From IMG/VR virus record IMGVR_UViG_3300025889_000118, positions 1 to 62,944 of that record: DNA of 62,944 bases. One strand, 5' to 3'. Position numbers and translations under genes: made by a program. Under the pieces are notes generated by a model. The model made no database searches. It saw nothing but the letters and a program-made list of their open reading frames with translations, and was not told the origin of the DNA. The DNA is from a virus (lineage: Duplodnaviria; Caudoviricetes). This document shows, in pieces, positions 798 to 34,625 of this stretch (its first letter is position 1; each line of letters starts with the position of its first letter).

Positions 798-1109
798 ATG
801 AGAAAAATAACTCAAGACGCAATAAGAGCCTTTACGAACATGCAACCATTTAAGCGAGGAAACACCGAAGTTAAGATTTTGAAAGATGAGGGTTCACTAA
901 AACCGAACTTTGCCCGTCTTATTCTTCATGGGAATACTATTGCCGAAAAGAGTCACAAAGGGATTCAAATAACTTCGGCAGGTTGGAAAACAAACACCAC
1001 AAAAGAACGCCTTAACGGGTTGCCTAATGTTAATATTACACAAAAGGACTTTGTATGGTATCTAAACGGTCATGCTTGGAATGGAGGTTGGATTAAGATT
1101 ACAGATTAA
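798..1109 (+). CDS. Conserved phage-type hypothetical protein
   Basis: LHGNTIA...GWKTNTTKERLN pattern resembles small early phage proteins; apparently leaderless, 48 nt after site B. Confidence 0.8.
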   Translation: MRKITQDAIRAFTNMQPFKRGNTEVKILKDEGSLKPNFARLILHGNTIAEKSHKGIQITSAGWKTNTTKERLNGLPNVNITQKDFVWYLNGHAWNGGWIKITD

Positions 1110-9153: not shown

Positions 9154-9285
9154 ATGAAATATGAGAAATTAAAATGTAAAAACGGCCATGCTAAACTAGC
9201 GGCAACCATAATTAACAAAGAAGAAAATTGGGTAGAGATTTACTGCCCTACTTGTTGCTATACCATTTGGTATAATGGAGCATGA
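9154..9285 (+). CDS. Zn-ribbon micro-protein
   Basis: CKNGH...CPTC; AGGAG RBS; translated by hand. Confidence 0.6.
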   Translation: MKYEKLKCKNGHAKLAATIINKEENWVEIYCPTCCYTIWYNGA

Positions 9286-9289
9286 TAGT

Positions 9290-9925
9290 ATGAATATATT
9301 CGCACTATCAAAAAGCCCGCTGAAATCAGCACAACAAATGATAAACAAGCATGTAGTAAAAATGCCGACAGAAACTTGTCAAATGCTACATACTAATGCT
9401 CTATACTTTGAGTATGTAGATGCTTACAATAATGAACCTACGCTGAAAGAACTAAAACAGTTTCACAAAGAAACAAATTCTATCTTAATGAAACCTGCCA
9501 TGTTGAATCATCCTTCAACTATTTGGGCAAGGCGAACTAAAGATAATGGAACTTGGTTATACCATCATGGATTATCTCTATGTTGGGAATATACTCACAG
9601 ATATGGTAAAGAACATGGTTCGTATAGAAGAATTAGAGCAGTAGATGAAGTATATCTTTCGGGTGACTGGAAACAAGCAACGCCCGTAACTATTGCTATG
9701 GATGACTCTTATCGCATCGAAAATACTTTTTCAGATGCATGGGAATTTGTAATTCAGTCTTATCGTCATTATTACCTTGAAGGTAAGTGGCGTTTTGCTG
9801 AATGGTATAAGAATCGCAGACCCAATTGGTTTCCAAACAATTGGTATGCAGTAAAGTATAACGAAGGGGTTAGGAGATATAATGCGTCTTTTCCTAAATA
9901 CCCTATGACGCTATTGGAGGAATAA
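9290..9925 (+). CDS. Pyrimidine-dimer glycosylase/T4 endonuclease V-like family protein
   Basis: MNIF...KHVVKMPTETCQML, NHPSTIWA, YTHRYGKEH, YRHYY. Confidence 0.75.
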   Translation: MNIFALSKSPLKSAQQMINKHVVKMPTETCQMLHTNALYFEYVDAYNNEPTLKELKQFHKETNSILMKPAMLNHPSTIWARRTKDNGTWLYHHGLSLCWEYTHRYGKEHGSYRRIRAVDEVYLSGDWKQATPVTIAMDDSYRIENTFSDAWEFVIQSYRHYYLEGKWRFAEWYKNRRPNWFPNNWYAVKYNEGVRRYNASFPKYPMTLLEE

Positions 9926-10576: not shown

Positions 10577-10987
10577 ATGTTAGTTAAGTGTGAAAAATGT
10601 GGTGTAGAATTTCGACCCCGTTCTTTACTTTGGGCAAAGAATCAAAGAAGAATTAAATGCGATACTTGTTATAATAAAAATAAAACTCCTAAAATGTTAA
10701 AATCTTTGAATGTAGATACACAGAACATTATTATGTCTTTAGAAGATAGAATTGATAGAGTTGAAGAAAAAGCAAATATGATTGATGTTATTGTGAATAC
10801 AATTATTCAAGATAAAATGACTGAAATGGAAAGTAAGTTAAAGAAAATAACAGAAGAAATTATTGAAAATGCTCATATTACTATTAATGAACATTTAGAT
10901 AAAGAATTTGAAAAGAGGTTTGAAAAACTACAAAAACAAATTATTACACTTAATAATAAAATAATAAAAATAGAGGAATCAAAATGA
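10577..10987 (+). CDS. Zn-finger plus coiled-coil protein
   Basis: CEKC...CDTC followed by heptad repeats. Confidence 0.75.
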   Translation: MLVKCEKCGVEFRPRSLLWAKNQRRIKCDTCYNKNKTPKMLKSLNVDTQNIIMSLEDRIDRVEEKANMIDVIVNTIIQDKMTEMESKLKKITEEIIENAHITINEHLDKEFEKRFEKLQKQIITLNNKIIKIEESK

Positions 10988-12267
10988 GAGAATTAGGAAC
11001 AGGTCATTGGGATAGAAAACTGATGGAACGGATGGTTGAATTATCTGTTGCTGATAACTATGAAGAGGCTAAAGAAGAATGGATTGCTACGGGCGAAGTA
11101 TGGTGGAGAGGAAATGGTGATATTCCCGAATGGGTTTCATCAAATAATCATCCCGAATATTGTCTATGCGGTCACGGTATTGTCTATCATTTTCATATTC
11201 TAAATACTGAAAATGGTCATGAGGATATTGTTGGTAGTGACCATATCAATTCATACTTGATTATGAGGCAAATTGCACAGGAAAAGAAAGTTGATATTGG
11301 AACAGTCACAGAAGAAGAAGTAGAACGCTGGCTAAAAGTTAGAGTTGGTTCTATGAAAGCAGAAGCATGGTGGAAAGTTAATGGTGATTCTTTTCAGCAA
11401 ATGTTTGACAAAGTGAAAGAATTAGATTGTTGGTTAAATGCTTATGAAAGGGATTGGGTGTATAAACATGATACTCAATGGAATGAACCCATTAGAGTTC
11501 TAAGGAAAAAAGGAAAAGGAACTCCATTTACTGATAATTACCGAATGGCTTCAATTGTTTGGAGATGGAATCATCCCGATAATCCAAAGAATCAATTTAC
11601 TGTTCATGGCTACCCTAATGACAAATTGATGCAAGATTTGTCTTTATTATTTGTTCAATCCGACCCTCTTCTTGAGAAATTTCACGCTTACAAAGAGAAA
11701 AGAAAGGCAAGAGTAGAAGAAGTAGCCCGTATGCGAGCAGAAAGAGAAGAACGACAACGCTTGGCTCGTATTGAAAGAGAAGCAAGAATGGAAAGAGAAA
11801 GGCTCGAAAGAGAAGCAATCCAAGCAGAAAAACTTCGCATCTATAATCTTCCCGAAAATGTAGAAAAGAGAAGATTAGAGGCCGAAAGAAGAGAAGCAGA
11901 ACGCTTAGAAAGAGAAGAACATATAAGAATTGCAAACGAAAAAGCGGAGGCTGAACGAATTAGAGTAATGAATTTAACTTTTGATTCTGAACCAAACGAG
12001 TTTCTTATCAATAATCTACAATTAGCAGGACTACCTATGCTTTCAAGAAGAGTATGTGAAGATATGAATGATTTAAGAGTCATTAGTTCTATCATGGCGG
12101 CTTTATCTAATGCAAATAAAGACCCTTCGGACTATTTTAGAAACTTAAGAGCAATTATGTTTGCATATCCAACAGTTGAACAAGTAGAGTTGATTAAAGA
12201 GTTGGGTTTAGAAGTGCCAAAAAATAGATTAGAAGCAGAACAACTATTACAGGAGAGAGAATTATGA
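10984..12267 (+). CDS. Hypothetical protein with Zn-binding domain and E/R-rich helix
   Basis: CLCGH...VGSDHI motif; long ER-rich segment. Confidence 0.85.
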   Translation: MRELGTGHWDRKLMERMVELSVADNYEEAKEEWIATGEVWWRGNGDIPEWVSSNNHPEYCLCGHGIVYHFHILNTENGHEDIVGSDHINSYLIMRQIAQEKKVDIGTVTEEEVERWLKVRVGSMKAEAWWKVNGDSFQQMFDKVKELDCWLNAYERDWVYKHDTQWNEPIRVLRKKGKGTPFTDNYRMASIVWRWNHPDNPKNQFTVHGYPNDKLMQDLSLLFVQSDPLLEKFHAYKEKRKARVEEVARMRAEREERQRLARIEREARMERERLEREAIQAEKLRIYNLPENVEKRRLEAERREAERLEREEHIRIANEKAEAERIRVMNLTFDSEPNEFLINNLQLAGLPMLSRRVCEDMNDLRVISSIMAALSNANKDPSDYFRNLRAIMFAYPTVEQVELIKELGLEVPKNRLEAEQLLQEREL

Positions 12268-12501: not shown

Positions 12502-12708
12502 ATGATTAAACTAAGAATTTTGAATGAAACAGGACACACAGAACTGATGCTTTCGGGCTCAGAAATTATTGAGCAAATTGACCGCCACCCGACCCATTGG
12601 TGTTTTATTGATGGAGAAATGGTAGCAAGGGAAGATATTACAGAAATCAATTGGGATGATGTCACATCAGTAGATTTGACTCCCGCTATTGTAGGAGGAG
12701 ACTACTAA
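12502..12708 (+). CDS. Ubiquitin-like (ThiS/MoaD/SAMP beta-grasp) protein with a GG-DY C-terminus
   Basis: 68 aa; MIKLRI first strand, FIDGEMV, VDLTPAIVGG then DY. Confidence 0.8.
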   Translation: MIKLRILNETGHTELMLSGSEIIEQIDRHPTHWCFIDGEMVAREDITEINWDDVTSVDLTPAIVGGDY

Positions 12709-12786
12709 TCTTAGATTAGTGTCTCCTTTTTCCTTGCAAACTTTCGGGGGAGTCGTTGTTTCCTATCCAACGGCTTCCCCTTTTTT
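12696..12786 (+). terminator. Tandem hairpin plus T-tract terminators
   Basis: ggagac-t-actaatct/agattagt-gtctcc then TTTTT; ggggagtcgttg/caacggcttcccc then a T run. Confidence 0.7.
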
Positions 12787-13175
12787 GGGTGATGTCACTC
12801 GATAAAATGGTTTTTATTGAAGAACCCACCCTTCAACTTTTTATGAGTCAATTTGATTGGAAAGTTGTAAAACCCAAATTACACAATAATTTAGTTATAT
12901 TCAAAGCAGACTTTTATGATGATGGTCATGTCTTTGCCATAGATGGTAAAGGTAAATGGGCGTTTTGTAGCGGTAATAGTCTTATCAAATATAAGAATGA
13001 AACCTTTAATTCAGTAGAAAAAATACTTGAGAGGTATGGAAATGATTGTATCAATGATTATGCTAATTGGGAATTTCTTGAAGAAAAAGAATGGGTAGTT
13101 ACAAAACATACCTGCCAGTTCTTAGGTTCTTTTAGTTCCTTAGATACAGTTCGTAAAAGTAGCAAATACAGGTGA
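12756..13175 (+). CDS. Hypothetical protein (true start probably about 12792)
   Basis: ORF; GGGTG before MSLDK. Confidence 0.65.
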   Translation: MFPIQRLPLFWVMSLDKMVFIEEPTLQLFMSQFDWKVVKPKLHNNLVIFKADFYDDGHVFAIDGKGKWAFCSGNSLIKYKNETFNSVEKILERYGNDCINDYANWEFLEEKEWVVTKHTCQFLGSFSSLDTVRKSSKYR

Positions 13176-13179
13176 TATT

Positions 13180-13518
13180 TTGTTAGGCAAAATATCATAT
13201 TCTGAATTTCTTGAGGCTCTTGTTCTCTTTATGAAGGAATTTGATAATGTATCTATAAACGACTTGGGGCAATCGTATCGTATTGCCTCTCTCTACGAAG
13301 ATAGAGAAAAAAAATTTATTTTAAAAACTAAATTATACGATATATTTTGGAAAATACCAAAAGCAATAGAAGATGGTTTTAATGTTTATTTAGAAAACAA
13401 AATAGACTATTATTACCATTTATCTAAATACCATATGAACAATTGCGAAGGTTATTGTGACATTTGCAAATTAAGAATTAAAAACTATGACTATTTATTT
13501 CACGGAGGAATAGAATGA
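13180..13518 (+). CDS. Hypothetical protein with HxxxCxxxCxxC
   Basis: TTG start after AGGTGA. Confidence 0.65.
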   Translation: MLGKISYSEFLEALVLFMKEFDNVSINDLGQSYRIASLYEDREKKFILKTKLYDIFWKIPKAIEDGFNVYLENKIDYYYHLSKYHMNNCEGYCDICKLRIKNYDYLFHGGIE

Positions 13519-13676
13519 AAGAAAAAGACCCCAAACATACTATAAATAACAGGCGTAATAGCCAAGTAGCGACCCAATGTAGAATATGCGGTGGAAAATT
13601 ATACACACCACAGGATATGAAAATAGAAATGCACGAATCTTGCAATAAAGATAATAAAAATATATATTTGATGTGA
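13515..13676 (+). CDS. Zn-finger micro-protein
   Basis: CRICG...HESC; GGAGG RBS. Confidence 0.6.
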   Translation: MKEKDPKHTINNRRNSQVATQCRICGGKLYTPQDMKIEMHESCNKDNKNIYLM

Positions 13677-13680
13677 TTAA

Positions 13681-14835
13681 ATGAATTTAAGAATAAGAAA
13701 ACCAGATGATAGCCATACTTTTTGGGAAACAGAAGTAGCCCTTAACGGACATATTTCTAATCGAACTGTTAGTATTAGCGGAATTTTGAACGCTAAAGAC
13801 CCTATTCATGAGGGGCTAAAACAACTACTTCAACGGTCTATTTCTGACCGTAGAGGGCAGAAGTTGTTCTATGGCCTTAGACAAGGAGATAACACTCTTA
13901 TGATTGGCGAGACTCCTTTTTTAATACATAAAAGTTCTCGCTATTATATTAACGGCCAACTAATGAAATTAGAAGAAATGTGCCATGCTCTCGCAAGAGT
14001 TTTGTTTAAGAGTTGTTTTGAAAAAGACCCTGCTAAATTATTACCTTACTTGTATTCTACGATGCAACTACCCGAATCAGTGAAGTATGTTATTGAGAAT
14101 AGAGTTCCATATTTCTTTTATGATGCATTTGATAGACATGATGTTAGACTAAATGTTCAGCAAATTTCTGATGAAGAATGTGCTATTGAAATAGGAGATG
14201 GAGTTTGGGGAAATATCACAGTGAGAGATTTAGAGTCATTTTGCAGGTTCTATGTTTCTCAAAAGAAAAGCAAATGGGAGTATATTTCTCCACAGAATCT
14301 TTATGAAAGACTTATTGGTAGAAAACCAAGCGTTTCAGATACGAAGGTTTTAGTCGCCTTTCTAAAACAGAATAGAAAAGAGGCTATTGTTGAAGAAAGA
14401 GCAGAACAACTGGTAAAAGAAATGTTAGAACAATATTCTGACAGGCTAAGAGCAGAATTTAAAGACGGCAAACTAAGTGATTTGTTTATCAAAGGAAACA
14501 GATTTGATTGGAAATTATCTCATAGAGGGGGAGGTGGTGGAACACAGAATGTTTCTACTTTCATTCATCAACCTTTAAGACAAAAGGTTCTCGATGACGA
14601 GGGTAAGGCCTTGAAAGATGAAGAAGGTAACTATATTACAACATTGTCCGAATATGATTGGAGAGGCCCAATTTGCATTGATAATATGGGCAATACTCCC
14701 GTTGGCGACCAATTCGCAAGTAGAGCATTGGCTCTATTAAATGATAATTTTACAATAAAGGCAGTTAGCACAATAAATAGTTATATTACTACTAATGAAA
14801 ATGAAAATAGAGTTGATTGGAATGAAGTGCGATGA
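13681..14835 (+). CDS. Hypothetical protein with C-terminal GPICID motif (possible E2-like Cys)
   Basis: 384-aa ORF between the Ubl and E1 genes; the CDS is secure, the function is speculative. Confidence 0.8.
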   Translation: MNLRIRKPDDSHTFWETEVALNGHISNRTVSISGILNAKDPIHEGLKQLLQRSISDRRGQKLFYGLRQGDNTLMIGETPFLIHKSSRYYINGQLMKLEEMCHALARVLFKSCFEKDPAKLLPYLYSTMQLPESVKYVIENRVPYFFYDAFDRHDVRLNVQQISDEECAIEIGDGVWGNITVRDLESFCRFYVSQKKSKWEYISPQNLYERLIGRKPSVSDTKVLVAFLKQNRKEAIVEERAEQLVKEMLEQYSDRLRAEFKDGKLSDLFIKGNRFDWKLSHRGGGGGTQNVSTFIHQPLRQKVLDDEGKALKDEEGNYITTLSEYDWRGPICIDNMGNTPVGDQFASRALALLNDNFTIKAVSTINSYITTNENENRVDWNEVR

Positions 14836-15676
14836 GTGTAATAGTTTAGATAATTACTTTGATGAGCGACTTGGTGAAAGAGTTTGTTCTTCTTGTGGAT
14901 TAGTTTTAGTCAATCATTTATTTGAAGAAACAACACATATCCTAAATTCAGTAGGAGAAGTAGTTCATAATGCTGATAATGATAAACTTGGTTCCGTAAT
15001 AACAGGAAAGGGCTCTTTCAAATACAATAGGTTTCAAAATCCAGTAGTTCCAAAACACATTACTAATGGATTGATGTATTGTAATATGGTATTAAGTAAT
15101 ATTACAACCTCTCAAGATACTAAAGATAGGGTAGAAAAAGTCTATACTGAATTGTGTTCTTCTTTAAGTAGTTTTACTCGATATACTTATGAAAATAGAG
15201 CAACTGCGGTAGTTTTCTATGTGCTAAGAGAAGCAGGAACTCCTGCTACAATGAAAGAAGTTTGTTCTGAATTCGAGGTAGAGATTAAGTTAGTTAGGAG
15301 AATATTAAGAAAAATAAATAGTTTTTACAAAAACAAATCTAATACACATATAGTAAGTCCTGTCTTTTATATGAATAAAACTGTAAATTCAATTGCTAAT
15401 GATTTATCTTTTCAGAATCAGTGCAGAATGGTTCTTGAAAAGTTTGAGTCTATTATAGCAAATAGCGACTTTAATAAAAGCAAATCTTATTATGCAAGTA
15501 TTTGTTGGATAACTTCTAATATATATGTTAGAGAATATACAAGAACATTGATTGCAGAAAAGACAGGATATAATGAAAAGTGTATCTATTTGCAAACAAA
15601 ATCACTGTTAAGTCTATTTGGGCTAAAAGATGTAAATGATGTAAAAGGTATAGATATAAATAAATTAGGTGTTTAA
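14822..15676 (+). CDS. tfb: Transcription factor B (TFIIB)-like protein
   Basis: CDEC...DERLGERVCSSCGLV Zn ribbon plus two cyclin-like repeats. Confidence 0.85.
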   Translation: MKCDECNSLDNYFDERLGERVCSSCGLVLVNHLFEETTHILNSVGEVVHNADNDKLGSVITGKGSFKYNRFQNPVVPKHITNGLMYCNMVLSNITTSQDTKDRVEKVYTELCSSLSSFTRYTYENRATAVVFYVLREAGTPATMKEVCSEFEVEIKLVRRILRKINSFYKNKSNTHIVSPVFYMNKTVNSIANDLSFQNQCRMVLEKFESIIANSDFNKSKSYYASICWITSNIYVREYTRTLIAEKTGYNEKCIYLQTKSLLSLFGLKDVNDVKGIDINKLGV

Positions 15677-15825
15677 ATGAAAGATGAAAAAAAAGTATTA
15701 ATGTGGTTGAATAAATATATTGATGATATTACTGATGTAGAAATAGATGGTGATAAACTGAGTCTATATGTTCATGGTAATTTAATTGGAATAATTACTC
15801 ACCAAAAAATAAGGAGGAAATAAAA

Positions 15826-16089
15826 ATGTTGAATAATAAAAATGGAAAATTGTATGTAGGAGATAAAGAAGTCATAAAAGGGTATGAATCGTTTAGCGGT
15901 TGGTATTGGTTTGTGACCGAAATAGAAGAAGAAGATTATGGAGGACACCCGTTGTATTTTGGATATGTTCAAGGATTTGAAGATGAATGGGGAACTTTTT
16001 GGTTGGGCGAATTACAACCACTAATTGATAAAGGTAAAGTTTGGGAAATTAATGAAGAAGATTTGTCACATGCAGGAAGGAGAGATTAA
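15826..16089 (+). CDS. DUF2958-like protein
   Basis: WYWFVTE...FGYVQGFEDEWGTFWLGEL. Confidence 0.7.
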   Translation: MLNNKNGKLYVGDKEVIKGYESFSGWYWFVTEIEEEDYGGHPLYFGYVQGFEDEWGTFWLGELQPLIDKGKVWEINEEDLSHAGRRD

Positions 16090-16090
16090 A

Positions 16091-16648
16091 ATGAGAAAAG
16101 TATTAGTTATTGGAGCAGGGGGAATTGGAAGTTTTCTAATTCCTCTTTTAGATAAAGTAGGATTGTATGATATTACAGTTGCAGACCCCGATAAAGTAGA
16201 AACTAAGAATCTATCATATCAAAACTTTAGAGAGGGTGATGTTAATTTATACAAAGTAGGTAGTATGAAGGCTCGATTTAATAGTGTTAAATTGATTAGT
16301 AAATATCCTATCCTAACTGAAAAACAAATGCAAGGATATGACTTGGTTATTTGTTGTGTAGATAATATTGGTCTTAGAAGAACCTTATACAACACAAGTG
16401 TTAAATGGCTTGATTTGAGGGCTCAAGGTAGAAACGCAGCACTTGTGAGTCATAACGCAGACCCTAAGATGTATGATACGCTATTAGCAGGAGAAGAAGG
16501 TTCATTCAGTTGTCAAGGAGATTCTTGGGATGGTTCAAATAAAGGAGTTCATTTTATGCAAGTAGCAATTGCTGGATTAGGGGCTCAATGGATTCAAAGA
16601 TGGTTTAACGGTGAAGAAGTTAAAGAATATACAGTTATCAATATGTGA
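16091..16648 (+). CDS. ThiF/MoeB/E1-like activating enzyme
   Basis: VIGAGGIGS, DPDKVETKNLSYQ, DLVICCVDN; candidate catalytic Cys in SFSCQ. Confidence 0.9.
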   Translation: MRKVLVIGAGGIGSFLIPLLDKVGLYDITVADPDKVETKNLSYQNFREGDVNLYKVGSMKARFNSVKLISKYPILTEKQMQGYDLVICCVDNIGLRRTLYNTSVKWLDLRAQGRNAALVSHNADPKMYDTLLAGEEGSFSCQGDSWDGSNKGVHFMQVAIAGLGAQWIQRWFNGEEVKEYTVINM

Positions 16649-16653
16649 TTATT

Positions 16654-16866
16654 ATGAAATATACAGAAGAAGATATTGGAATGGTTTTAGATATTGATAC
16701 AGATAACGGTTCATCTTATGATGAAAGAATAGTATTGGTGTATTGCCAAGTATGTAGTTCAAGATTTATTGGCCCAATTAAAGAGGCAGGAGGATTTCTT
16801 GCAAGACATGAATTCTTTCATACTTGGGAATTTAAAATGGAAATGCAAACAGAATTGGAGGCTTAA
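16654..16866 (+). CDS. C2H2-like Zn-finger protein
   Basis: CQVC...HEFFH. Confidence 0.65.
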   Translation: MKYTEEDIGMVLDIDTDNGSSYDERIVLVYCQVCSSRFIGPIKEAGGFLARHEFFHTWEFKMEMQTELEA

Positions 16867-16868
16867 TT

Positions 16869-17177
16869 ATGAGTAAAAAATGGAATAAAGAAAAAGAATT
16901 AGATTTGTTAGTTAATTTTTATGAGTTGTCTATTGATGAAGCAAGGGAAAGATACGATGCTTCATACAAGACAATTGCAGGAAGATTAGAACAATTATTT
17001 GATGCAACAGAACCCGAACAGATAGCACTACTTATGGAGGCTTCTGAGGAGGTAAAAAGGCGTAAGGGTGTATCGCTTAATAGCACCCCAAAAAGTCGCA
17101 AGGAGCAACGCTTATTGCGTAAAATAAACAAATTACAGAACAAGTTAGAAGAATTAAGGAGAGATAATAATGAGTAG
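16869..17177 (+). CDS. Possible HTH/Myb-like plus coiled-coil protein
   Basis: KWNKEKELDLL...ARERYDASYKTIAGRL. Confidence 0.65.
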   Translation: MSKKWNKEKELDLLVNFYELSIDEARERYDASYKTIAGRLEQLFDATEPEQIALLMEASEEVKRRKGVSLNSTPKSRKEQRLLRKINKLQNKLEELRRDNNE

Positions 17178-17775
17178 AAGTGGAGATTGGTTTATTAGAA
17201 CCTATGGAGATGATATATTTGATGATTCGGAATATGAGATTTGGAGAGCAGAAAAAGAAATAGATTTGTTAGAAAAGAGACAAGAAGCGGAAGAGTATAT
17301 TCTACGCTCTTTTGTGAAAATTTCAGAAGAAACTGCTAATAGTTGTGGAGGAAATTTTGAAGACATTGAAGATATTGCTCAACACGATTTAGAATTCCAT
17401 GAAGCCATTTGGTATGCTTCTACACAAATACTGCCCGAACTCGAAGTTCAAGTTGTTATTGACGGCAAAAATAATTGTTTTGTCACAACAGGTTCAGCAG
17501 GTTATGTAGAATTTGGAATGAGGCCACCAATCGGAATGACACTACCGATTAGATGTTGGATTCATACTCATCCTTTTGGTAGTGCTTATTTTAGTGGAAC
17601 AGATATTAGAACTGTTTCTATTTGGGAACCTAATATGGAATGTGCTTATGTTCTTGGTGGAATAGGTCATTCGGGTTTTTGGTCTAATAGAAACCCTAAA
17701 CAATTAGAAATTTTCAGAAACAATGAATATGAAAGAACTCAAACATGGGGGATAACAGATGATAGCGAAGAATAA
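17170..17775 (+). CDS. JAB/MPN+ metallopeptidase (Ubl processing)
   Basis: E...WIHTHPFGSAYFSGTD matches JAMM HxH-x7-S-x2-D. Confidence 0.9.
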   Translation: MSRSGDWFIRTYGDDIFDDSEYEIWRAEKEIDLLEKRQEAEEYILRSFVKISEETANSCGGNFEDIEDIAQHDLEFHEAIWYASTQILPELEVQVVIDGKNNCFVTTGSAGYVEFGMRPPIGMTLPIRCWIHTHPFGSAYFSGTDIRTVSIWEPNMECAYVLGGIGHSGFWSNRNPKQLEIFRNNEYERTQTWGITDDSEE

Positions 17776-17980
17776 TTATGTAATTGTAGAACAAGAAACA
17801 CAGGGTAGTGGTTTAATTACCATGAAAGAAAATAATGTTGGAAGAGTAGTATCTTGTGCTATTGAGCCTGAACTTGAAGGCAAAGTAGTAATCTTTTCTA
17901 CGGCTAAAGCCATTCAAGAATATGACGGGTTCAAATTTGTGCCTCACGAATTCATTATGGCCGTTATGGAGGAACAGTAA
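17759..17980 (+). CDS. groES: GroES-like co-chaperonin
   Basis: NYVIVE...SGLI...GRVVS...IMAVME; upstream of GroEL. Confidence 0.7.
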   Translation: MIAKNNYVIVEQETQGSGLITMKENNVGRVVSCAIEPELEGKVVIFSTAKAIQEYDGFKFVPHEFIMAVMEEQ

Positions 17981-18274: not shown

Positions 18275-18407
18275 AAGGTTTTTCTACTTTTAAAGGCAAA
18301 AGACAATGCAATAATTGTGGAATTATCAAATATCAAGTTGGTAGAAATCACGAATACAAGGTTGATGGCGTTAGAACTTATTGTGGATATATGAGGTTGG
18401 TGAAAGA

Positions 18408-19898
18408 ATGATTATACAAGGAAAAGAAGTTAAAGAAAAATTACTAAAAGGAATTAATTTAGTGGCTGATACGGTTAAGCCGACATTAGGCCCACAAGCA
18501 AAGACAGTCATATTGCAGAATAACCCGCCTATTATTGTTAATGATGGTGTGACTATTACAAAACATATTTCCCATGAAGACCCTTATGTTCAAATGGGAA
18601 TTCAAATGGTTCAAAACTTAGCAAGTAAAGCCCAAGATAGTTCGGGAGATGGAACAACAACTGCTTGTGTTTTAGCCCAAGCACTTTGTAATGCTATGTT
18701 TGAAAGAATCAATAATGTTATGACTACTCATGAAGTATATCATACTCTTGAGCAGTTTAAATCAGACATGATAGAGAAATTAGATGAACTTTCTAATGAA
18801 GTGGGGGATGAAGATATAATTAATGTGGCTACAATAGCAGCAAATAATGATTATTCTCTTGGTAATCTAATTAATGAGGCTATTAATAAAGTAGGTAGAG
18901 AAGGAATTATTACAGTAGAAGAGTCTAACTCTCATCTAACCTCTTTGGTTTTAAGAGAAGGAATGCAACTAACAGAAGGCTACATTAGTCATTTAATGGT
19001 AAATACAGAAGATGGTAAAACTGTATATCAAAAACCATTGATATTTATGTCTAATTTATCTTTTAGGAACTTTAAGGATTTAATGCCCATGTTAGAATTT
19101 GCCGCCACCAACAATAGACCCCTATTGATTTTCTGTAAAGGAATGGATGGTTCAGCACTGAATAACTTGTTGATGAATGTAATGAATAAGACTGTTGAAT
19201 GTGTTGTGTGTCTCGCTCCTAATTTTGGCGACCAACAATTAGATGAGTTAGGAGACATACAGGCTAAGGTTGGCGGAACTATTTTTACAACAGAAAGTAA
19301 AGATGACCCAACTTCTTTTGTGGAAACAGACTTTGGAACTTGTGAAAGCGTTATTGTCTCAAAAGAAAGAACCATTATTGTTGGAGCAGAAGGCGACACT
19401 ACTGATAGAATCAATTCGCTAAAAGGAATGCTTGAACATATGGAAGGTTTTGAATCAGCAAGGGTTAAATCAAGAATTGCGAGACTAAAGGGGGGAGTTG
19501 CAACAATTAAAGTTGGAGCCTCTTCTTCTATGGAAATGTTAGAGAAGAAAGAAAGACTCGATGATGCTCTAAATGCTACAAGAGCCGCCTTATCAGAAGG
19601 TATTGTAGCAGGAGGAGGATTGGCATTAATGGAATGTAGTAGGCAAATAAATGCTCCTAATTGGCTAACACAACCAATGCAAGCCCCATACAGAACATTA
19701 TTTGAAAATAGTAATGCTCCTTACAAGAGTTATACTGAATATCCTATTGGCTCTAACGCTCTCACAGGAGATATTTCTAATTTAGAAGTAATGGGCGTAT
19801 TTGACCCAGTTAAAGTTACTAAGAATAGTTTCTTAGCCGCCATGTCAATTGCCCAGTTGTTTTATTCAACAGATGTAGCAGTATTAGTGGAGGAATGA
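18408..19898 (+). CDS. groEL: Group I chaperonin GroEL
   Basis: TLGP, NDGVT, GDGTTT, EKKERLDDALNATRAA, GGG, DPVKV. Confidence 0.95.
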   Translation: MIIQGKEVKEKLLKGINLVADTVKPTLGPQAKTVILQNNPPIIVNDGVTITKHISHEDPYVQMGIQMVQNLASKAQDSSGDGTTTACVLAQALCNAMFERINNVMTTHEVYHTLEQFKSDMIEKLDELSNEVGDEDIINVATIAANNDYSLGNLINEAINKVGREGIITVEESNSHLTSLVLREGMQLTEGYISHLMVNTEDGKTVYQKPLIFMSNLSFRNFKDLMPMLEFAATNNRPLLIFCKGMDGSALNNLLMNVMNKTVECVVCLAPNFGDQQLDELGDIQAKVGGTIFTTESKDDPTSFVETDFGTCESVIVSKERTIIVGAEGDTTDRINSLKGMLEHMEGFESARVKSRIARLKGGVATIKVGASSSMEMLEKKERLDDALNATRAALSEGIVAGGGLALMECSRQINAPNWLTQPMQAPYRTLFENSNAPYKSYTEYPIGSNALTGDISNLEVMGVFDPVKVTKNSFLAAMSIAQLFYSTDVAVLVEE

Positions 19899-29617: not shown

Positions 29618-30381
29618 AATTTAATGTAAATAGCAACGAACTAAAAGAAGCATTAGAAAGCCTACAAGTAAAAGGTAAGCATCTAACAAATAATGGATTC
29701 AGTAGTAGTAATTTTGGGAGTATCTTTTACGCTCATATCTATGAAAATACTCTATCATTATACAATGGTGACTCTACTTTTATGCTAAAGATTACTTTGC
29801 AGGTAGAAGAAGGAGAGAACGGTAGTTTTGTTGCCGATTCTTCTCTTATTCTGCCTTATTTGAAATCATTTGGCGATACAGTAAATGTTGTTGTAGGCGA
29901 CTACATATCAATGTCAAGTGGCACAAAGAAAGCCAATGTGCCTAAACTTGTAGAACACCCCTCTAACGATGCATTACAAAGACTAATCCAAATGACCAAT
30001 CATGTTAGATATGAACCAAACCCACAAACAATGTTTGCATTTGGTAATTCTAACTTTGAAGGAGCATTTACTCTTAGTCAAAATGTTTTCAAAGATTGTA
30101 TTAAGAATGCCGAATTAGTAAAGTCGGGTATTTACAATCTTAACTTCCATGAGGGAGTAGTTAAGATTACTTCAACTACAAACGCAACTACTTCTTATGA
30201 AGAGAGTATTACTCCTACATTTTTAACAGGAGATTCAGCAACACTGGACTTTAGTTCTCCATTGTATTCTTTCTTTGAGAAAGACCAAATGTTAAACTTC
30301 TATGTAAAAGATGAGTTCCCTATGTTAATCGTAGCAAATGATAGGTTAGTTTTGAAAGCCCCTTATGTCGGTGGTAATTGA
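29614..30381 (+). CDS. PCNA-like sliding clamp
   Basis: About 255 aa; two-domain beta-alpha-beta pattern; C-terminal FPM...LKAP; precedes PolB. Confidence 0.7.
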   Translation: MKFNVNSNELKEALESLQVKGKHLTNNGFSSSNFGSIFYAHIYENTLSLYNGDSTFMLKITLQVEEGENGSFVADSSLILPYLKSFGDTVNVVVGDYISMSSGTKKANVPKLVEHPSNDALQRLIQMTNHVRYEPNPQTMFAFGNSNFEGAFTLSQNVFKDCIKNAELVKSGIYNLNFHEGVVKITSTTNATTSYEESITPTFLTGDSATLDFSSPLYSFFEKDQMLNFYVKDEFPMLIVANDRLVLKAPYVGGN

Positions 30382-32039
30382 TGATTATTAGCAAATGTGA
30401 TGATGGTAAAAGTATCTTTTTATCATGGAGAGAGAATGGAGAGAAACAATTTAATATTGTGCCTTTCAGTCCTTATTTCTATATATTGGATAGCCAAGAG
30501 GAAATTCCTTCTTATTCTCCTTCTAAATACATTACAAGAGATTTTGAATATATTAAAGGCGATTTTGTAAATCTTGATAAAGAACCATTAAAGAAAGTTA
30601 TCGTAGAAAATTCTTTTGATTTAAGAAAAGCAAAAGATTTGTTTAAGCAAACTTATGAAGCAGATGTTCCTTATCACTTTAGATATGCAGTTGATAATAT
30701 TCATGAAATGCCCGAATACGATTTAAGAAAATGGTATTGGGATATGGAATGGCAACAAGGCGGAGAATATCACGATTGTATTACTACTATTGTAGCGTAT
30801 GATAACTACGATAAAAAATATTACCAGTGGGTATGGTTTCCTAATGGAGAATCTAATGGATTCTCCACTTTACAATATAAACAAATGTATGCTTTTAATT
30901 CTGAAAAAGATATGCTTGAAAACTTCATGAGAACAATGCTTACTAAAGACCCCGATATGCTAATTGCTTGGTTCGGACAAAGATTCGATTTGCCTCATTT
31001 GATTAAAAGAGCCTGTGCTTTAGGATTAGACCCTCGCATAATGTCTCCTATTGCATCAATTAAGGGCATTTCTAAGGCGAAGGAGGGCTTCAAATTCGCA
31101 TATGGTGAAAAGGGATTCTCGCCAATAGAACAACCAATTGGAGGCCGCATAACTCTTTCTCTTGATTTGGCTTTTGAAAGACAATGGAATGATTCTCAAA
31201 GAGGAACATTACCTTCTTTGTCTTTGGAATATGTTTCTCAATTATTATTTGGGGAAGGTAAAGTAAAAGAAAGTAAATTTACAGATAAGAATGAATTCTT
31301 TCGTAGGGCTTGGTTAGAAGATACAGAAGTGTATCTTGAGTATGCTTTAGTTGATGTAGAATTATTAGTTAGAATAGATGAAACTAATTATTGTAGTGAA
31401 GCAGTTATATCTCTACAAAGACTACTAAAAGCACCATTTGATGCTTGTTTCTATGCTTCTCATATGGGTAGTATTTACTTTATGAGAAATGCTTGGTGGA
31501 AAGCACCAACAGGAGATAAAAGCGTAGAAAGAAAGGATTATGATGGGGCTATGATTTACGACCCGTTAAGTGAAAATACTAATGGGTTACATCTTAATGT
31601 CGCTGCTTTTGATTTCGCAGGTCTATATCCTTCTATGATGATTGCAAGAAATATTTCTTGGGAAACCAAATCCGAAGACCCTACTGAATTTGGTGTAAAT
31701 ATTGCTACACCAAGAGATTTTAGCGAGATAAGTAGAGAAAAAATGCTTTACTATAAAACAGATAAATTAGGTCTTTTGCCAAGAGCAGTATTGGAATTGA
31801 AAGAATTAAGAAATGAATATAAGCGTCTGATGAAAGAAGCAAGAGAAAATAATACTGGGGAATACCAAAAATGGTATAATAATCAAATGGCAGTAAAAAG
31901 ACTAATGGCATCTTTTTATGGTATTGTTGCTTTTCAAGGATTTGGATGGGCTGATGTTGATTTAGCCTCATCAATTACTGCGAGTGCAAGAGAGGCTATT
32001 AGGTTAGCCGCATTTAAGGCAAAGGAGATGGAATCTTGA
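30381..32039 (+). CDS. polB: Family B DNA polymerase, N-terminal part (3'-5' exonuclease, motifs A and B)
   Basis: WDME, FDLP, YALVD, DFAGLYPS, KRLMASFYG; stops just before motif C. Confidence 0.95.
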   Translation: MIISKCDDGKSIFLSWRENGEKQFNIVPFSPYFYILDSQEEIPSYSPSKYITRDFEYIKGDFVNLDKEPLKKVIVENSFDLRKAKDLFKQTYEADVPYHFRYAVDNIHEMPEYDLRKWYWDMEWQQGGEYHDCITTIVAYDNYDKKYYQWVWFPNGESNGFSTLQYKQMYAFNSEKDMLENFMRTMLTKDPDMLIAWFGQRFDLPHLIKRACALGLDPRIMSPIASIKGISKAKEGFKFAYGEKGFSPIEQPIGGRITLSLDLAFERQWNDSQRGTLPSLSLEYVSQLLFGEGKVKESKFTDKNEFFRRAWLEDTEVYLEYALVDVELLVRIDETNYCSEAVISLQRLLKAPFDACFYASHMGSIYFMRNAWWKAPTGDKSVERKDYDGAMIYDPLSENTNGLHLNVAAFDFAGLYPSMMIARNISWETKSEDPTEFGVNIATPRDFSEISREKMLYYKTDKLGLLPRAVLELKELRNEYKRLMKEARENNTGEYQKWYNNQMAVKRLMASFYGIVAFQGFGWADVDLASSITASAREAIRLAAFKAKEMES

Positions 32040-32926
32040 CCGTTCAATTTTGGGTAGCATTGGATAGTCATGATAGAATAACTATCAATAATGCCCTTAG
32101 AGGAAAAGAATATCAGTGTTTAGAATGCAACGGTATTATGATACCGAAAAAAGGCGAAATAAAACAACATCACTTTGCCCATAAATCAGACTATTCTTGT
32201 AGTGGAGAAGGACAAAAACATCTTTACATTAAAGAATTGATTTTTGAAATTCTTCAATTAGACGAATATTTATTAAATGGTGCTAAAATATACATGGAAA
32301 AATCTTTCTTAGGATTAAGACCAGATATTCTAATAAAATGGAATAAAGATAGATATGTTGCGATAGAAGTTTGCGACACATCTGAATCTTCAAAAGATAA
32401 AAAGAAAATATATGGTAAAAATATGATTGAGTTCAAAATCAGTGATTGGAAAGAAGAAGAAATGACTAATCCTATTTACATTTTTAATTCTGTATATCCT
32501 ATTTTATTTAGAAAAATTTTCAACATAACTTTTGAAGAAAAACAAAGGAAACTTAAGGAGTTAAACTTAGAATATAATAAATTGTTAAGTGAATATAAGC
32601 AAGCCCAGTTGATTTTTAACAAAGACTTTTCTTATATTGATGGAAGTTGGGGAGATTTATCAAGAATACAAGATTGCCCACCCCGAACTTATGTAGCCAC
32701 TACTGATTGGTTTGACGATAAGCAGACAAATAAAATAGCAAAACTTACTTCTAAAAGTGGCAAAATTACTTGGGTAAAACTCATAGAATTTTTAGGTGAA
32801 GATGATTATAGAGATTATTATTCTTATGAAAAAATGGAGATTTCAGAAGAATCAAAATCCATTTTACATAAACAATATAATTACAACAAAGTTTGGGATG
32901 AATCTGATTGGGAGGAATTTGAATGA
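32036..32926 (+). CDS. CoiA-like Zn-finger PD-(D/E)xK nuclease
   Basis: YQCLEC...KKGEIKQHHFAH...H...K; RPDI...AIEV. Confidence 0.75.
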   Translation: MTVQFWVALDSHDRITINNALRGKEYQCLECNGIMIPKKGEIKQHHFAHKSDYSCSGEGQKHLYIKELIFEILQLDEYLLNGAKIYMEKSFLGLRPDILIKWNKDRYVAIEVCDTSESSKDKKKIYGKNMIEFKISDWKEEEMTNPIYIFNSVYPILFRKIFNITFEEKQRKLKELNLEYNKLLSEYKQAQLIFNKDFSYIDGSWGDLSRIQDCPPRTYVATTDWFDDKQTNKIAKLTSKSGKITWVKLIEFLGEDDYRDYYSYEKMEISEESKSILHKQYNYNKVWDESDWEEFE

Positions 32927-33517: not shown

Positions 33518-33714
33518 ATGCTGAACAAATGAAAAAGAAAATTGAAGAATTAGAAATAAAAATTAAAGGATTAGAAAACGACTTAGATGTTTTGTATCAA
33601 ACAGACAACAGAAAACTCGCAAGAGCAATACATGAGATACAAGAACATCTTAGAAAAGAAGGACTTTATATCATAAATGATATTTATGCTCCTACAATGG
33701 TGGGAATGTCATGA
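33514..33714 (+). CDS. Small coiled-coil protein
   Basis: Heptad repeats; overlaps the PolB-C start (ATGA). Confidence 0.65.
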   Translation: MNAEQMKKKIEELEIKIKGLENDLDVLYQTDNRKLARAIHEIQEHLRKEGLYIINDIYAPTMVGMS

Positions 33715-34625
33715 AAGTAGTTTATGGGCATACAGACTCAATCTATGTTCAGATTGATTCTGTTGAAAAAGCCCAAAACTGTATTAAAGAAATAGAAGCA
33801 AGTGTTAGAGAACATTTTCCAAATATTCTTGGTTTAGAGCAACACCCCGTAGTTCTTGAATTTGAAAAATACTATTCTGCTTTAGGTGTAGGAACAACAA
33901 AGAATAGAAATGCAGGTATGATAACTTGGGAAGATGGAGTATGGCTCGATGAACCTAAATTTACAATGACGGGTTTTACTGCTAAAAGAGTAAGTGTGAC
34001 CCAATTAGAAAAAGAAGTTCAAACTGAAACACTCAAACTTTGGGTGAACAATAAAAGCATGGCTGAAATAACGAAGTATTTGCATTCTATGTATAATGAA
34101 GTTCTTCAAGGAAAGATTGACAAAACGCTTCTTATTAAAAGAAGTCGTCTTAAAGAAGCAAGATTCATGGTTCAATGTCAAAAGTGTAAAAGAAAATATC
34201 ACTTGAATGATATTACTGAACTGAATGTTTGTGGAGAAAATGAAGGTAGAGCAGGAACCCATAAGTGTGGTAATGGAGTATCTAACTTCTTAACGATAGA
34301 ACAGAAGAAACCATCAATCGGTTCGGGTATTGCAGGAGTTTTATATTGCTGGCAAAAGAAAAATATTTCTTTTGATGACTCTTATCTATTCCTTAAGGTA
34401 AAGGGAGTAAATGATTACTATACCCATCCTTTAACAAAAGAAAAAAGAGAAGTGGAATATATGGCAGGAAACATCAATACTGATTTTGATAATTATACTC
34501 CCGATTGGGAACACTATGCGGAACAGGTTCTAAAGAAAGCAAAGCCTATTTACGAATCTATGGGATGGGATATTTCAAGTATTAGAAGCGGTAGGATTCA
34601 AACCTCACTAACGGAGTGGTTCTAA
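33711..34625 (+). CDS. polB: Family B DNA polymerase, C-terminal part (motif C, thumb)
   Basis: MKVVYGHTDSIYV, LEFEK, KNRNAG, DWEHYAEQ; C-terminal PIP-box-like QTSLTEWF. Confidence 0.95.
   Translation: MKVVYGHTDSIYVQIDSVEKAQNCIKEIEASVREHFPNILGLEQHPVVLEFEKYYSALGVGTTKNRNAGMITWEDGVWLDEPKFTMTGFTAKRVSVTQLEKEVQTETLKLWVNNKSMAEITKYLHSMYNEVLQGKIDKTLLIKRSRLKEARFMVQCQKCKRKYHLNDITELNVCGENEGRAGTHKCGNGVSNFLTIEQKKPSIGSGIAGVLYCWQKKNISFDDSYLFLKVKGVNDYYTHPLTKEKREVEYMAGNINTDFDNYTPDWEHYAEQVLKKAKPIYESMGWDISSIRSGRIQTSLTEWF

Follow-up and report, generated by a model that had tools for sequence, protein, structure and literature searches.

A candidate ubiquitin-like conjugation pathway encoded by a magrovirus-type tailed virus of archaea

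Results

Ubiquitin-like protein and its C terminus

We analyzed a 62,944-nucleotide stretch of DNA (IMG/VR record IMGVR_UViG_3300025889_000118), referred to below as the window. The 62.9-kb window represents a tailed archaeal virus of magrovirus type (Poseidoniales virus). Between positions 12502 and 17775, its plus strand encodes a small ubiquitin-like protein (Ubl), a candidate E2-like protein, a minimal E1, and a JAB metalloprotease, and these four genes and the conjugation pathway that they may form are the subject of this study. An initial annotation made from the sequence had placed a Ubl, an E1, and a JAB within 5.3 kb, and the measured span from the Ubl gene to the JAB gene is 5274 bases. 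The locus sits in a plus-strand replication block (approximately 4.4 to 40.3 kb) that includes genes for a UvrD-type helicase, an ATP-dependent ligase, an RFC-like ATPase, a family B polymerase, nucleases, and GroEL. The structural genes, among them that of the tail-tube protein, form a minus-strand block on the opposite strand. A Ubl homologue in NCBI carries the name Poseidoniales virus YSH_150918 protein, and no nucleotide match to the region was found among deposited phages. For comparison, 80 related viral loci were retrieved by means of the E1, and a minimum flank length was set for each gene for the presence counts.

The Ubl precursor (12502..12708, plus strand) is encoded by an open reading frame (ORF) of 68 amino acids ending in PAIVGGDY, as in the initial annotation. 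The protein matched no Pfam family above the cut-off and had no sequence match to a PDB family. Its own family comprises 391 homologues at an E value of ≤0.01, all of approximately 68 amino acids and none with a Pfam family. The C-terminal Gly-Gly was kept in 117 of the 120 cluster representatives listed, with 28 different tails; the tail consisted of two residues in 115 of these 117 representatives and of five residues in one, and it was missing from one. All Ubls of 51 related viral loci have the Gly-Gly as well, followed by two residues in 37 loci and one residue in 6, with no tail in the remaining 8. The ten residues preceding the tail are almost invariant (motif ..A-I/V-V-G-G), and His12, His29, His32, and Trp33 are likewise invariant. 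The combination of a conserved Gly-Gly with a hypervariable tail is the signature of a modifier whose C terminus is exposed by cleavage.

The Ubl was modeled with AlphaFold2 on 42 sequences, giving a mean predicted local distance difference test (pLDDT) score of 86.9 and a beta-beta-alpha-beta-beta-beta order of elements. When the model was compared to the PDB with Foldseek, the best 50 rows were all ubiquitin, SUMO, NEDD8, or ISG15; the matches were modest, with a best E value of 8.1e-3, none reaching 1e-3, and template modeling (TM) scores of 0.36 to 0.49. The VIA structural search returned MoaD (Z score, 5.4; root mean square deviation [rmsd], 3.4; 63 residues aligned), ISG15 (Z score, 5.2), and a bacterial BilA-type Ubl (8tyz_B; Z score, 5.2), followed by CysO, SAMP1, and ThiS. 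The predicted fold is thus a beta-grasp by modest scores and homogeneous match lists, consistent with the beta-grasp-like protein that had been recognized from the sequence.

The VIA matches bear on a different reading of the locus, in which the Ubl would be a sulfur carrier of the ThiS/MoaD/QbsE kind. The JAB would expose the Gly-Gly, the E1 would adenylate it, and a host persulfide donor would then produce a thiocarboxylate for a host pathway, such as tRNA 2-thiolation or cofactor synthesis, with no protein conjugates being formed. MoaD was the best match of the Ubl in this search, and CysO, ThiS, and SAMP1 were also listed. In quinolobactin synthesis, a two-residue cap is removed by a JAMM enzyme. 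Triads of Ubl, E1, and JAB are known from bacterial sulfur and siderophore operons, as tabulated in PMC1779556 (Table 1, rows 4a to 4e). Speaking against a sulfur carrier, no gene for ThiG, MoaE, rhodanese, CysM, or a PP-loop thiolase was found at the Pfam level among the 102 ORFs of the window, in line with the absence of sulfur-transfer genes reported initially, although a sulfur acceptor or sulfurtransferase could be encoded by the host.

Patterns of the Ubl were also searched in 185,579 species genomes and were found in only three contigs of one flavobacterial metagenome-assembled genome ('Altibacter sp.'). These contigs (L083 to L085) hold three different magrovirus-type Ubl genes and are most simply virus contigs that were mis-binned into a bacterial genome.

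JAB protease

The JAB/JAMM metalloprotease (17170..17775, plus strand; 201 amino acids) has an intact E...HxH...S..D motif. None of the five motif residues (Glu92, His132, His134, Ser142, and Asp145) varies among the 25 homologues aligned, so that the description of the protein as an intact JAMM protease holds. The JAB profile matched AMSH-like proteases in the PDB across the JAMM motif (E value, 2.3e-4); the window protein itself missed the cut-off of Pfam Prok-JAB (PF14464), with 20.4 bits versus 25. A run of glutamates (E-E-E) ends nearly all JAB homologues, forming a conserved acidic tail.

The JAB had been tied to the Ubl through the two-residue DY cap. The conservation of the Gly-Gly and the variability of the tail are in agreement with this proposal, but 8 of the 51 viral Ubls already end at the Gly-Gly, and all 8 of these loci retain an intact JAB. 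The presence of an intact JAB where the Ubl needs no trimming indicates that trimming is not the only role of the protease and argues for another one, for example, deconjugation. The same observation would fit a reading in which the genes interfere with a host system, with the JAB stripping SAMP-like modifiers of the host and the E1 and Ubl serving as decoys, or in which the Ubl goes to a nonprotein acceptor.

Minimal E1

The E1 ORF runs from 16025 to 16648. Because the homologues begin at the ATG at 16091, the start was placed there, giving a protein of 185 amino acids (16091..16648, plus strand) that consists of a ThiF/MoeB-type adenylation domain only. It matched Pfam ThiF (PF00899) with an E value of 1.3e-18 (67.4 bits versus a cut-off of 28.1), and its profile matched ThiF-type proteins, Cap2, UBA5, MccB, MoeB, and Uba4 in the PDB. 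The protein was aligned by MAFFT with Escherichia coli MoeB and ThiF from the K-12 record. The residues G8, G10, G11, and G13 of the GxGxxG loop are invariant and align with MoeB G38 to G43, and the likewise invariant Asp91, Arg96, and Lys55 align with MoeB D130, R135, and K86. Cys141 aligns with the crossover-loop cysteine of both enzymes (MoeB C187 and ThiF C184). It is invariant in 20 magroviral E1s, and the cysteine of the [S/T]-S-C-Q motif is found in 16 of the 17 relatives read, the exception being P0378. The nucleotide-binding motif and the candidate catalytic Cys141 (SFSCQ) of the initial annotation are thus confirmed, and the residue number is correct for the 185-amino-acid start.

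A single MoeB/ThiF-type domain with its cysteine aligned to those of ThiF and MoeB would also suit a sulfur carrier. Against that reading, the viral E1 reached no NCBIfam ThiF, MoeB, or UbaA cut-off (best, 52.2 bits versus 275), and it has no rhodanese domain, unlike the entries in rows 4a and 4b of the table in PMC1779556.

The E1 profile was searched against 1.84 billion representatives, and 1095 clusters were obtained at an E value of <1e-10. Beyond approximately 12 magroviral entries, these make up a large family of full-length mini-E1s of 190 to 205 amino acids. The existence of such a large family outside the magroviruses is a further point in favor of interference with a host system.

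A complex of Ubl residues 1 to 66 with the E1 was also predicted, as had been proposed with the initial annotation, and scored 0.44 compared to 0.21 for the best control. The runs showed at least 97% contact agreement and a partner pLDDT of at least 82, with author-built alignments. Of 157 solved complexes, 116 attained the pass mark, as did 2 of 215 mismatched pairs; passes scoring ≤0.60 comprised only 18 of the 157 solved complexes together with both of the passing mismatches. The predicted complex passed but lends weak support to an interaction, and the pass may simply reflect resemblance to E1-Ubl complexes of known structure.

Candidate E2-like protein

The E2 families UQ_con, Prok-E2, and PADLOC E2 were not matched by any window ORF in Pfam, NCBIfam, or PADLOC. 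A candidate is nevertheless present in the locus, as had been suggested, in the form of a conserved neighbor of 384 amino acids (13681..14835, plus strand). Cys332 is the sole invariant cysteine of its family, which was aligned from 58 sequences with identities down to 25%. The protein was modeled with a pLDDT of 86.2. With residues 233 to 384 of the model, VIA returned FANCL (Z score, 6.1) and E2S (Z score, 5.6; rmsd, 4.1; 112 of 151 residues aligned), values that fall below the usual best chance score of this search, 7 to 8. By title, approximately 40 of the 50 rows were E2, UEV, or RWD proteins; Ube2K was among them, and one chain of the bacterial BubCD-BubB-BubA complex was also matched. 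In the model, Cys332 is located after the last strand (residues 320 to 331) and before a helix (residues 341 to 353), as is the catalytic cysteine of E2 enzymes. A UBC/RWD-like fold of the C-terminal domain is probable on the basis of the model. The protein atlas gave only unnamed clusters for the 384-amino-acid protein (0.76).

The 139-amino-acid protein encoded next to the Ubl (12756..13175) was also considered for this role but was rejected, as none of its internal positions is a conserved cysteine.

The conservation of a partner that has a predicted UBC/RWD-like domain and an invariant cysteine counts against a sulfur carrier. It also bears on interference. The virus carries a complete, coevolving set of Ubl, E1, E2-like protein, and JAB, which is more than interference needs. 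The Gly-Gly of the Ubl, Cys141 of the E1, and Cys332 of the E2-like protein are all invariant, which points to catalysis rather than to decoy binding. We consider interference with a host system, or transfer to a nonprotein acceptor, quite unlikely.

Linkage of the genes across viruses

Co-occurrence across magroviruses had been named as a check of the initial annotation, and it was found throughout. The Ubl is present in all 42 loci with at least 7.9 kb of sequence upstream of the E1, and the JAB is present in all 77 loci whose downstream flank measures 3 kb or more; without exception, both genes share the strand of the E1, and the loci without Ubl or JAB are all cut short. The E2-like gene occurs in 55/55 loci with at least 4 kb upstream, and a TFB-like gene occurs in 61/61 magrovirus loci with at least 2.6 kb upstream. 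Because shared gene order inside a single group of viruses carries little weight, a wider search was made among distant relatives. The magrovirus genes are 0.5 to 7.8 kb apart with unrelated genes between them, and the whole block is syntenic. This arrangement would be expected if the genes were unrelated neighbors in a conserved viral segment and the Gly-Gly ending were coincidental.

Natural fusions speak against this possibility. P0336, a metagenomic protein of 329 amino acids, has a magrovirus-type Ubl at residues 31 to 93 (hhalign probability, 98.3%; E value, 1.1e-14), followed by an E1 domain; the Ubl part ends in Gly-Gly and a Gly/Ser linker ahead of the E1. P0364 (407 amino acids, from a cluster of 21 members) consists of an E1 followed by a magrovirus-type JAB (hhalign probability, 98.3%; E value, 1.8e-14). 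Neither protein was found in the viral contig collection. These Ubl-E1 and E1-JAB fusions come close to refuting the view that the genes are unrelated neighbors.

Four viral contigs of 106 to 204 kb (L086 to L089), from large uncultured phages, have a contiguous operon in which a Cys-motif protein of 684 to 731 amino acids is followed by a Ubl, a JAB, and a mini-E1. The operon Ubl has 75 to 80 amino acids and ends in Gly-Gly plus one residue, and it matched the magrovirus Ubl with a probability of 95.5%. The operon JABs pass the Pfam Prok-JAB cut-off (41.1 and 30.2 bits). Within its last 190 residues, the large protein that precedes the Ubl in these operons has the Cys motif of the 384-amino-acid family together with the helix that comes after it. 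A comparison restricted to the domain gave an hhalign probability of 81.6% (E value, 1.1e-5), and BLASTP gave an E value of 5e-4; with full-length profiles of the two families, the probability was only 20%. The Ubl of L089 continues past its Gly-Gly into a fused domain of 150 amino acids. The surroundings of the four operons include an AAA ATPase, a DUF5131 protein, and a sigma-70 gene within 2 to 4 kb downstream, as well as a WGR-domain protein upstream. The 427-amino-acid gene upstream of the window Ubl (10984..12267) was examined as a counterpart of the phage upstream proteins and was rejected, as there was no similarity.

A third arrangement was found in GC-rich metagenome contigs (L092 to L096), which carry a Ubl, an 84-amino-acid ORF, an E1::JAB fusion, an 86-amino-acid ORF, and a TFB-like zinc-ribbon gene. 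The Ubl of these contigs matched the magrovirus Ubl with a probability of 97.8%. The contigs may be cellular; if so, the occurrence of Ubl, E1::JAB fusion, and TFB-like gene in them would be in favor of interference with a host system. The other strand encodes two large proteins, each with a C-I-D/V ... A-L-x-N-D motif like that of the E2-like protein. A partial protein of L092 with a V-C-I-D-P motif was compared to the 384-amino-acid family, and the match was suggestive only (probability, 19.6%; E value, 1.2e-3); the second L092 protein gave a probability of 2.8%. The window TFB and the TFB-like protein of L092 had no significant BLASTP match and have only the zinc ribbon in common by Pfam.

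Cultured crAss-like Bacteroides phages have a JAB-like gene directly upstream of a ThiF-domain gene, namely, gp77/gp76 of crAss001 (L091) and gp89/gp88 of DAC15 (L090). The pair lies in the replication module. The JAB-like proteins match Prok-JAB weakly (20 to 23 bits), and the ThiF proteins have an N-terminal extension of 105 to 160 amino acids. The two genes were deposited as 'metalloprotease' and 'thiamine biosynthesis protein'. In another metagenomic protein, P0333 (311 amino acids), a mini-E1 is fused to an N-terminal helix-turn-helix (HTH) or sigma-70 region-4-like domain (HTH_23; E value, 1.6e-6). The window protein encoded between the E1 and JAB genes at 16869..17177 was tried as a counterpart of the HTH part of P0333 and was rejected (probability, 0.8%).

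The fusions and operons in distant lineages indicate that the Ubl, E1, and JAB are very likely linked functionally, as judged from sequence comparison, and the initial proposal that the three genes form one system is upheld. The occurrence of a contiguous Ubl-JAB-E1 operon in distant phages and of the Ubl family beside an E1::JAB fusion on GC-rich contigs of no relation adds to the case against unrelated neighbors, a reading to which we assign a very low probability.

Neighboring genes

Several further genes of the locus are conserved. The protein encoded directly 3' of the Ubl gene (12756..13175, plus strand) has 139 amino acids in the window and approximately 125 in its relatives. It matched no Pfam family above the cut-off. 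Members of its family were found by jackhmmer in 32 of 81 sources, always directly after the Ubl; a conserved ..Y-R-C forms the C terminus of the relatives, and the copy in the window ends one residue sooner. The protein is an uncertain member of the Ubl system, as is a small CxxC...HxxxH protein between the E1 and JAB (16645..16866, plus strand), which has no Pfam family match and was found in 19 of 81 sources. In the most divergent lineages, this small protein begins right at the end of the E1. It is a possible accessory component and might stand in for the zinc site that is absent from the mini-E1.

The divergent TFB/TFIIB-like protein (14795..15676, plus strand) has an N-terminal zinc ribbon (Pfam Zn_Ribbon_TF; E value, 4.1e-7; 29.9 bits versus a cut-off of 29) and is below the NCBIfam TFIIB cut-off (25.8 bits versus 384). 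Downstream, a 73-amino-acid ORF (17759..17980, plus strand) overlaps the 3' end of the JAB gene and precedes GroEL; it is kept in 56 of 81 sources and may encode a co-chaperonin, without a Pfam Cpn10 match. The GroEL (18381..19898, plus strand) is of the bacterial type (PHROG chaperonin; E value, 3.4e-113).

Elsewhere in the window, the family B DNA polymerase seems to be split within a stretch of plus-strand ORFs at 30378..32039, 32036..32926, and 33711..34625. One ORF covers the exonuclease domain and Pfam profile positions 38 to 193, and an ORF 1.7 kb downstream covers positions 222 to 413; a CoiA_N-domain ORF separates the two. Also on the plus strand are genes for a Kyanoviridae Gp96-like protein (798..1106; E value, 6e-17) and a pyrimidine-dimer DNA glycosylase (9275..9925; E value, 6.4e-7).

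In one metatranscriptome run, a single contig of 376 bases matched positions 17148 to 17523 over the JAB gene with 4 differences, and a piece of 35 bases matched the E1; DNA can occur in such libraries, and these matches are hence not proof of transcription.

Discussion

Proposed pathway

We think it probable that the magrovirus locus encodes a pathway for Ubl conjugation whose nearest known relatives are BilABCD and the system of small archaeal modifier proteins (SAMPs), with a new Ubl, a mini-E1, and a new E2-like protein. In such a pathway, the JAB would first cut off the two residues (DY) that follow Gly66 of the 68-amino-acid precursor. The mini-E1 would then adenylate the exposed Gly-Gly carboxylate and probably form a thioester on Cys141. 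From there, the Ubl would be handed to Cys332 of the 384-amino-acid E2-like protein and finally to lysine residues in proteins of the virus or the host, and the JAB would also strip the tag from conjugates. All four steps are inferred from the comparative evidence, which establishes the shared membership of the components and not what the components modify.

A number of observations weigh against this interpretation. The Ubl fold scores do not separate a modifier from a sulfur carrier, MoaD being equally close by model comparison. Synteny alone is weak evidence, as the magrovirus genes are scattered over 5.3 kb within a generally conserved replication block. The 384-amino-acid protein has no HPN motif, and the context of its cysteine is P-I-C-I-D-N. 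Its VIA Z scores stay under the usual best chance score, and the Foldseek comparison of the full model to the PDB gave no meaningful match (best E value, 1.6e-2; TM score, 0.14). Other points concern the E1. Its sole candidate cysteine sits where the sulfur-carrier E1s ThiF and MoeB also have a cysteine, and there is no separate catalytic-cysteine domain like that of BilD or the eukaryotic E1s. The N-terminal 30 residues or so are missing and with them an equivalent of MoeB Arg14, and the position of MoeB R73 and ThiF R70 is occupied by an invariant Tyr43. In the MoeB-MoaD structure, R14 of the N-terminal helix and R73 are reported to be the arginines at the ATP phosphates. The invariant Lys39, adjacent to Tyr43, may substitute for the missing arginine, as judged from the alignment. 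The structural zinc cysteines (MoeB C172, C175, C244, and C247) were not found in the E1 alignment, and the C-terminal segment is missing relative to MoeB. Because equivalents of Arg14 and Arg73 and the zinc site are absent, the adenylation competence of the E1 is assumed.

Several of these points would suit a sulfur carrier as well. In archaeal as well as bacterial viruses, however, the genes lie in blocks for replication and transcription. This location speaks against a sulfur carrier, and together with the conserved E2-like partner and the lack of sulfur-transfer genes in the window it leads us to regard that reading as rather unlikely.

Comparison with known systems

The likeness to the bacterial Bil system is in the set of parts. 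Types I and II of BilABCD comprise the Ubl BilA, the E2 BilB, the JAB BilC, and the E1 BilD, and the Bil JAB preprocesses the Ubl after a conserved glycine and also cleaves conjugates, according to PMC10557695. The viral set corresponds to it part by part, with a Ubl whose conserved C-terminal glycine is followed by extra residues, an E1, a protein with a candidate E2-type cysteine, and a JAB. The four kinds of gene occur together in the window and its relatives and are contiguous in the phage operons, with the E2 being a candidate. The differences are substantial. As described in that source, Bil is an anti-phage operon of the host, whereas the magrovirus genes are on the genome of a tailed virus along with structural and replication genes. 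BilD is described there as having inactive and active adenylation domains, a CYS domain, and a zinc site, whereas the viral E1 is one domain of 185 amino acids without them. The viral E2-like protein, at 384 amino acids, includes a sizable N-terminal part and matched none of the known E2 families by sequence.

The archaeal SAMP system comprises SAMPs, the E1 UbaA, and the JAMM protease HvJAMM1 (PMC4443979 and PMC4895103), and a TATA-binding protein is a known SAMP target, as reported in PMC4895103. It resembles the viral set in its archaeal setting, in having small beta-grasp modifiers with Gly-Gly, in the reversal of modification by a JAMM protease, and in the use of a single-domain MoeB-type E1 with a crossover-loop cysteine. 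The viral E1 differs from UbaA, scoring 32.4 bits on the NCBIfam UbaA model (NF047750) versus a cut-off of 450 and having neither the N-terminal segment nor the zinc site. SAMPylation is not known to need an E2, whereas an E2-like candidate is conserved beside the viral Ubl and E1.

Other known systems share fewer features. ThiS/MoaD-type operons, such as the PdtH/PdtF/PdtG siderophore clusters listed in PMC1779556, also combine a glycine-ended beta-grasp carrier with an E1-like enzyme and a JAB. The cyclic-oligonucleotide-based antiphage signaling system (CBASS) has a JAB partner (Cap3) as well, and the Rossmann region of the viral E1 matched PADLOC Cap2 'E1-E2' models (best E value, 1.1e-10) and Cap2 chains in the PDB (E value, 1.1e-9), the Cap2 matches spanning only residues 2 to 124 of the viral protein. 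In type II CBASS (PMC10097602), it is the CD-NTase itself that is conjugated and not a free Ubl, and Cap2 is an E1-E2 fusion. Among viruses, the tail proteins TAPI and the JAB-containing TAPK of lambda and T1 (PMC1779556) include a beta-grasp protein with a conserved C-terminal glycine and an adjoining JAB peptidase. In the account given there, they come without an E1 and belong to the tail module, in contrast to the location of the magrovirus genes in a replication/transcription block.

The nearest statement found in print concerns Asgard archaeal viruses (Nidhogg), which encode ThiF/E1-like proteins proposed to hijack ubiquitin-like systems (bioRxiv 10.1101/2021.07.29.454249). Only E1-like genes are reported for these viruses, presumed to act on the Ubl and E2 of the host, whereas the magrovirus has its own Ubl, JAB, and E2-like protein. 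The main texts of the magrovirus papers examined do not contain the words ubiquitin, ThiF, or JAB, and supplements outside this scope may list ThiF-like genes. No description of the set was found in the literature searched, and a comparative paper on jumbo phages has no such system. Relative to the known prokaryotic Ubl-E1-E2-JAB systems, the set is novel in being virus borne and in combining a minimal E1 with Ubl and E2-like families that are both new.

Association with transcription factors and implications

In viruses of both domains of hosts, the genes are repeatedly associated with transcription initiation factors, namely, the TFB-like gene of the magroviruses, which also accompanies the distant E1::JAB fusion, the sigma-70 gene 2 to 4 kb downstream of the cassette in 4/4 phage contigs, and the HTH fusion of P0333. 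We take this as a lead. Attachment of the Ubl to initiation factors or RNA polymerase could redirect or time transcription during infection, so that the set would act as a viral switch for the transcription machinery, an idea that we put forward as an improbable one; TFB as a target is speculation. If true, such a switch would parallel, in viruses of prokaryotes, the way in which ubiquitin controls transcription, and it may have a common ancestry with host systems.

In PMC5434244, magroviruses are placed third among ocean viruses by abundance, behind SAR11 phages and cyanophages. They have no cultured host, and the E1-JAB relatives in cultured crAss-like Bacteroides phages offer a laboratory system. 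If the proposed pathway is real, Ubl conjugation would be found on the viral side of the conflict and not only in host defenses such as Bil and CBASS. The viral proteins would then include the smallest known E1, at 185 amino acids, and new Ubl and E2-like families for a minimal Ubl activation chemistry, and the finding would bear on the origin of ubiquitin-type signaling among archaea and their viruses.

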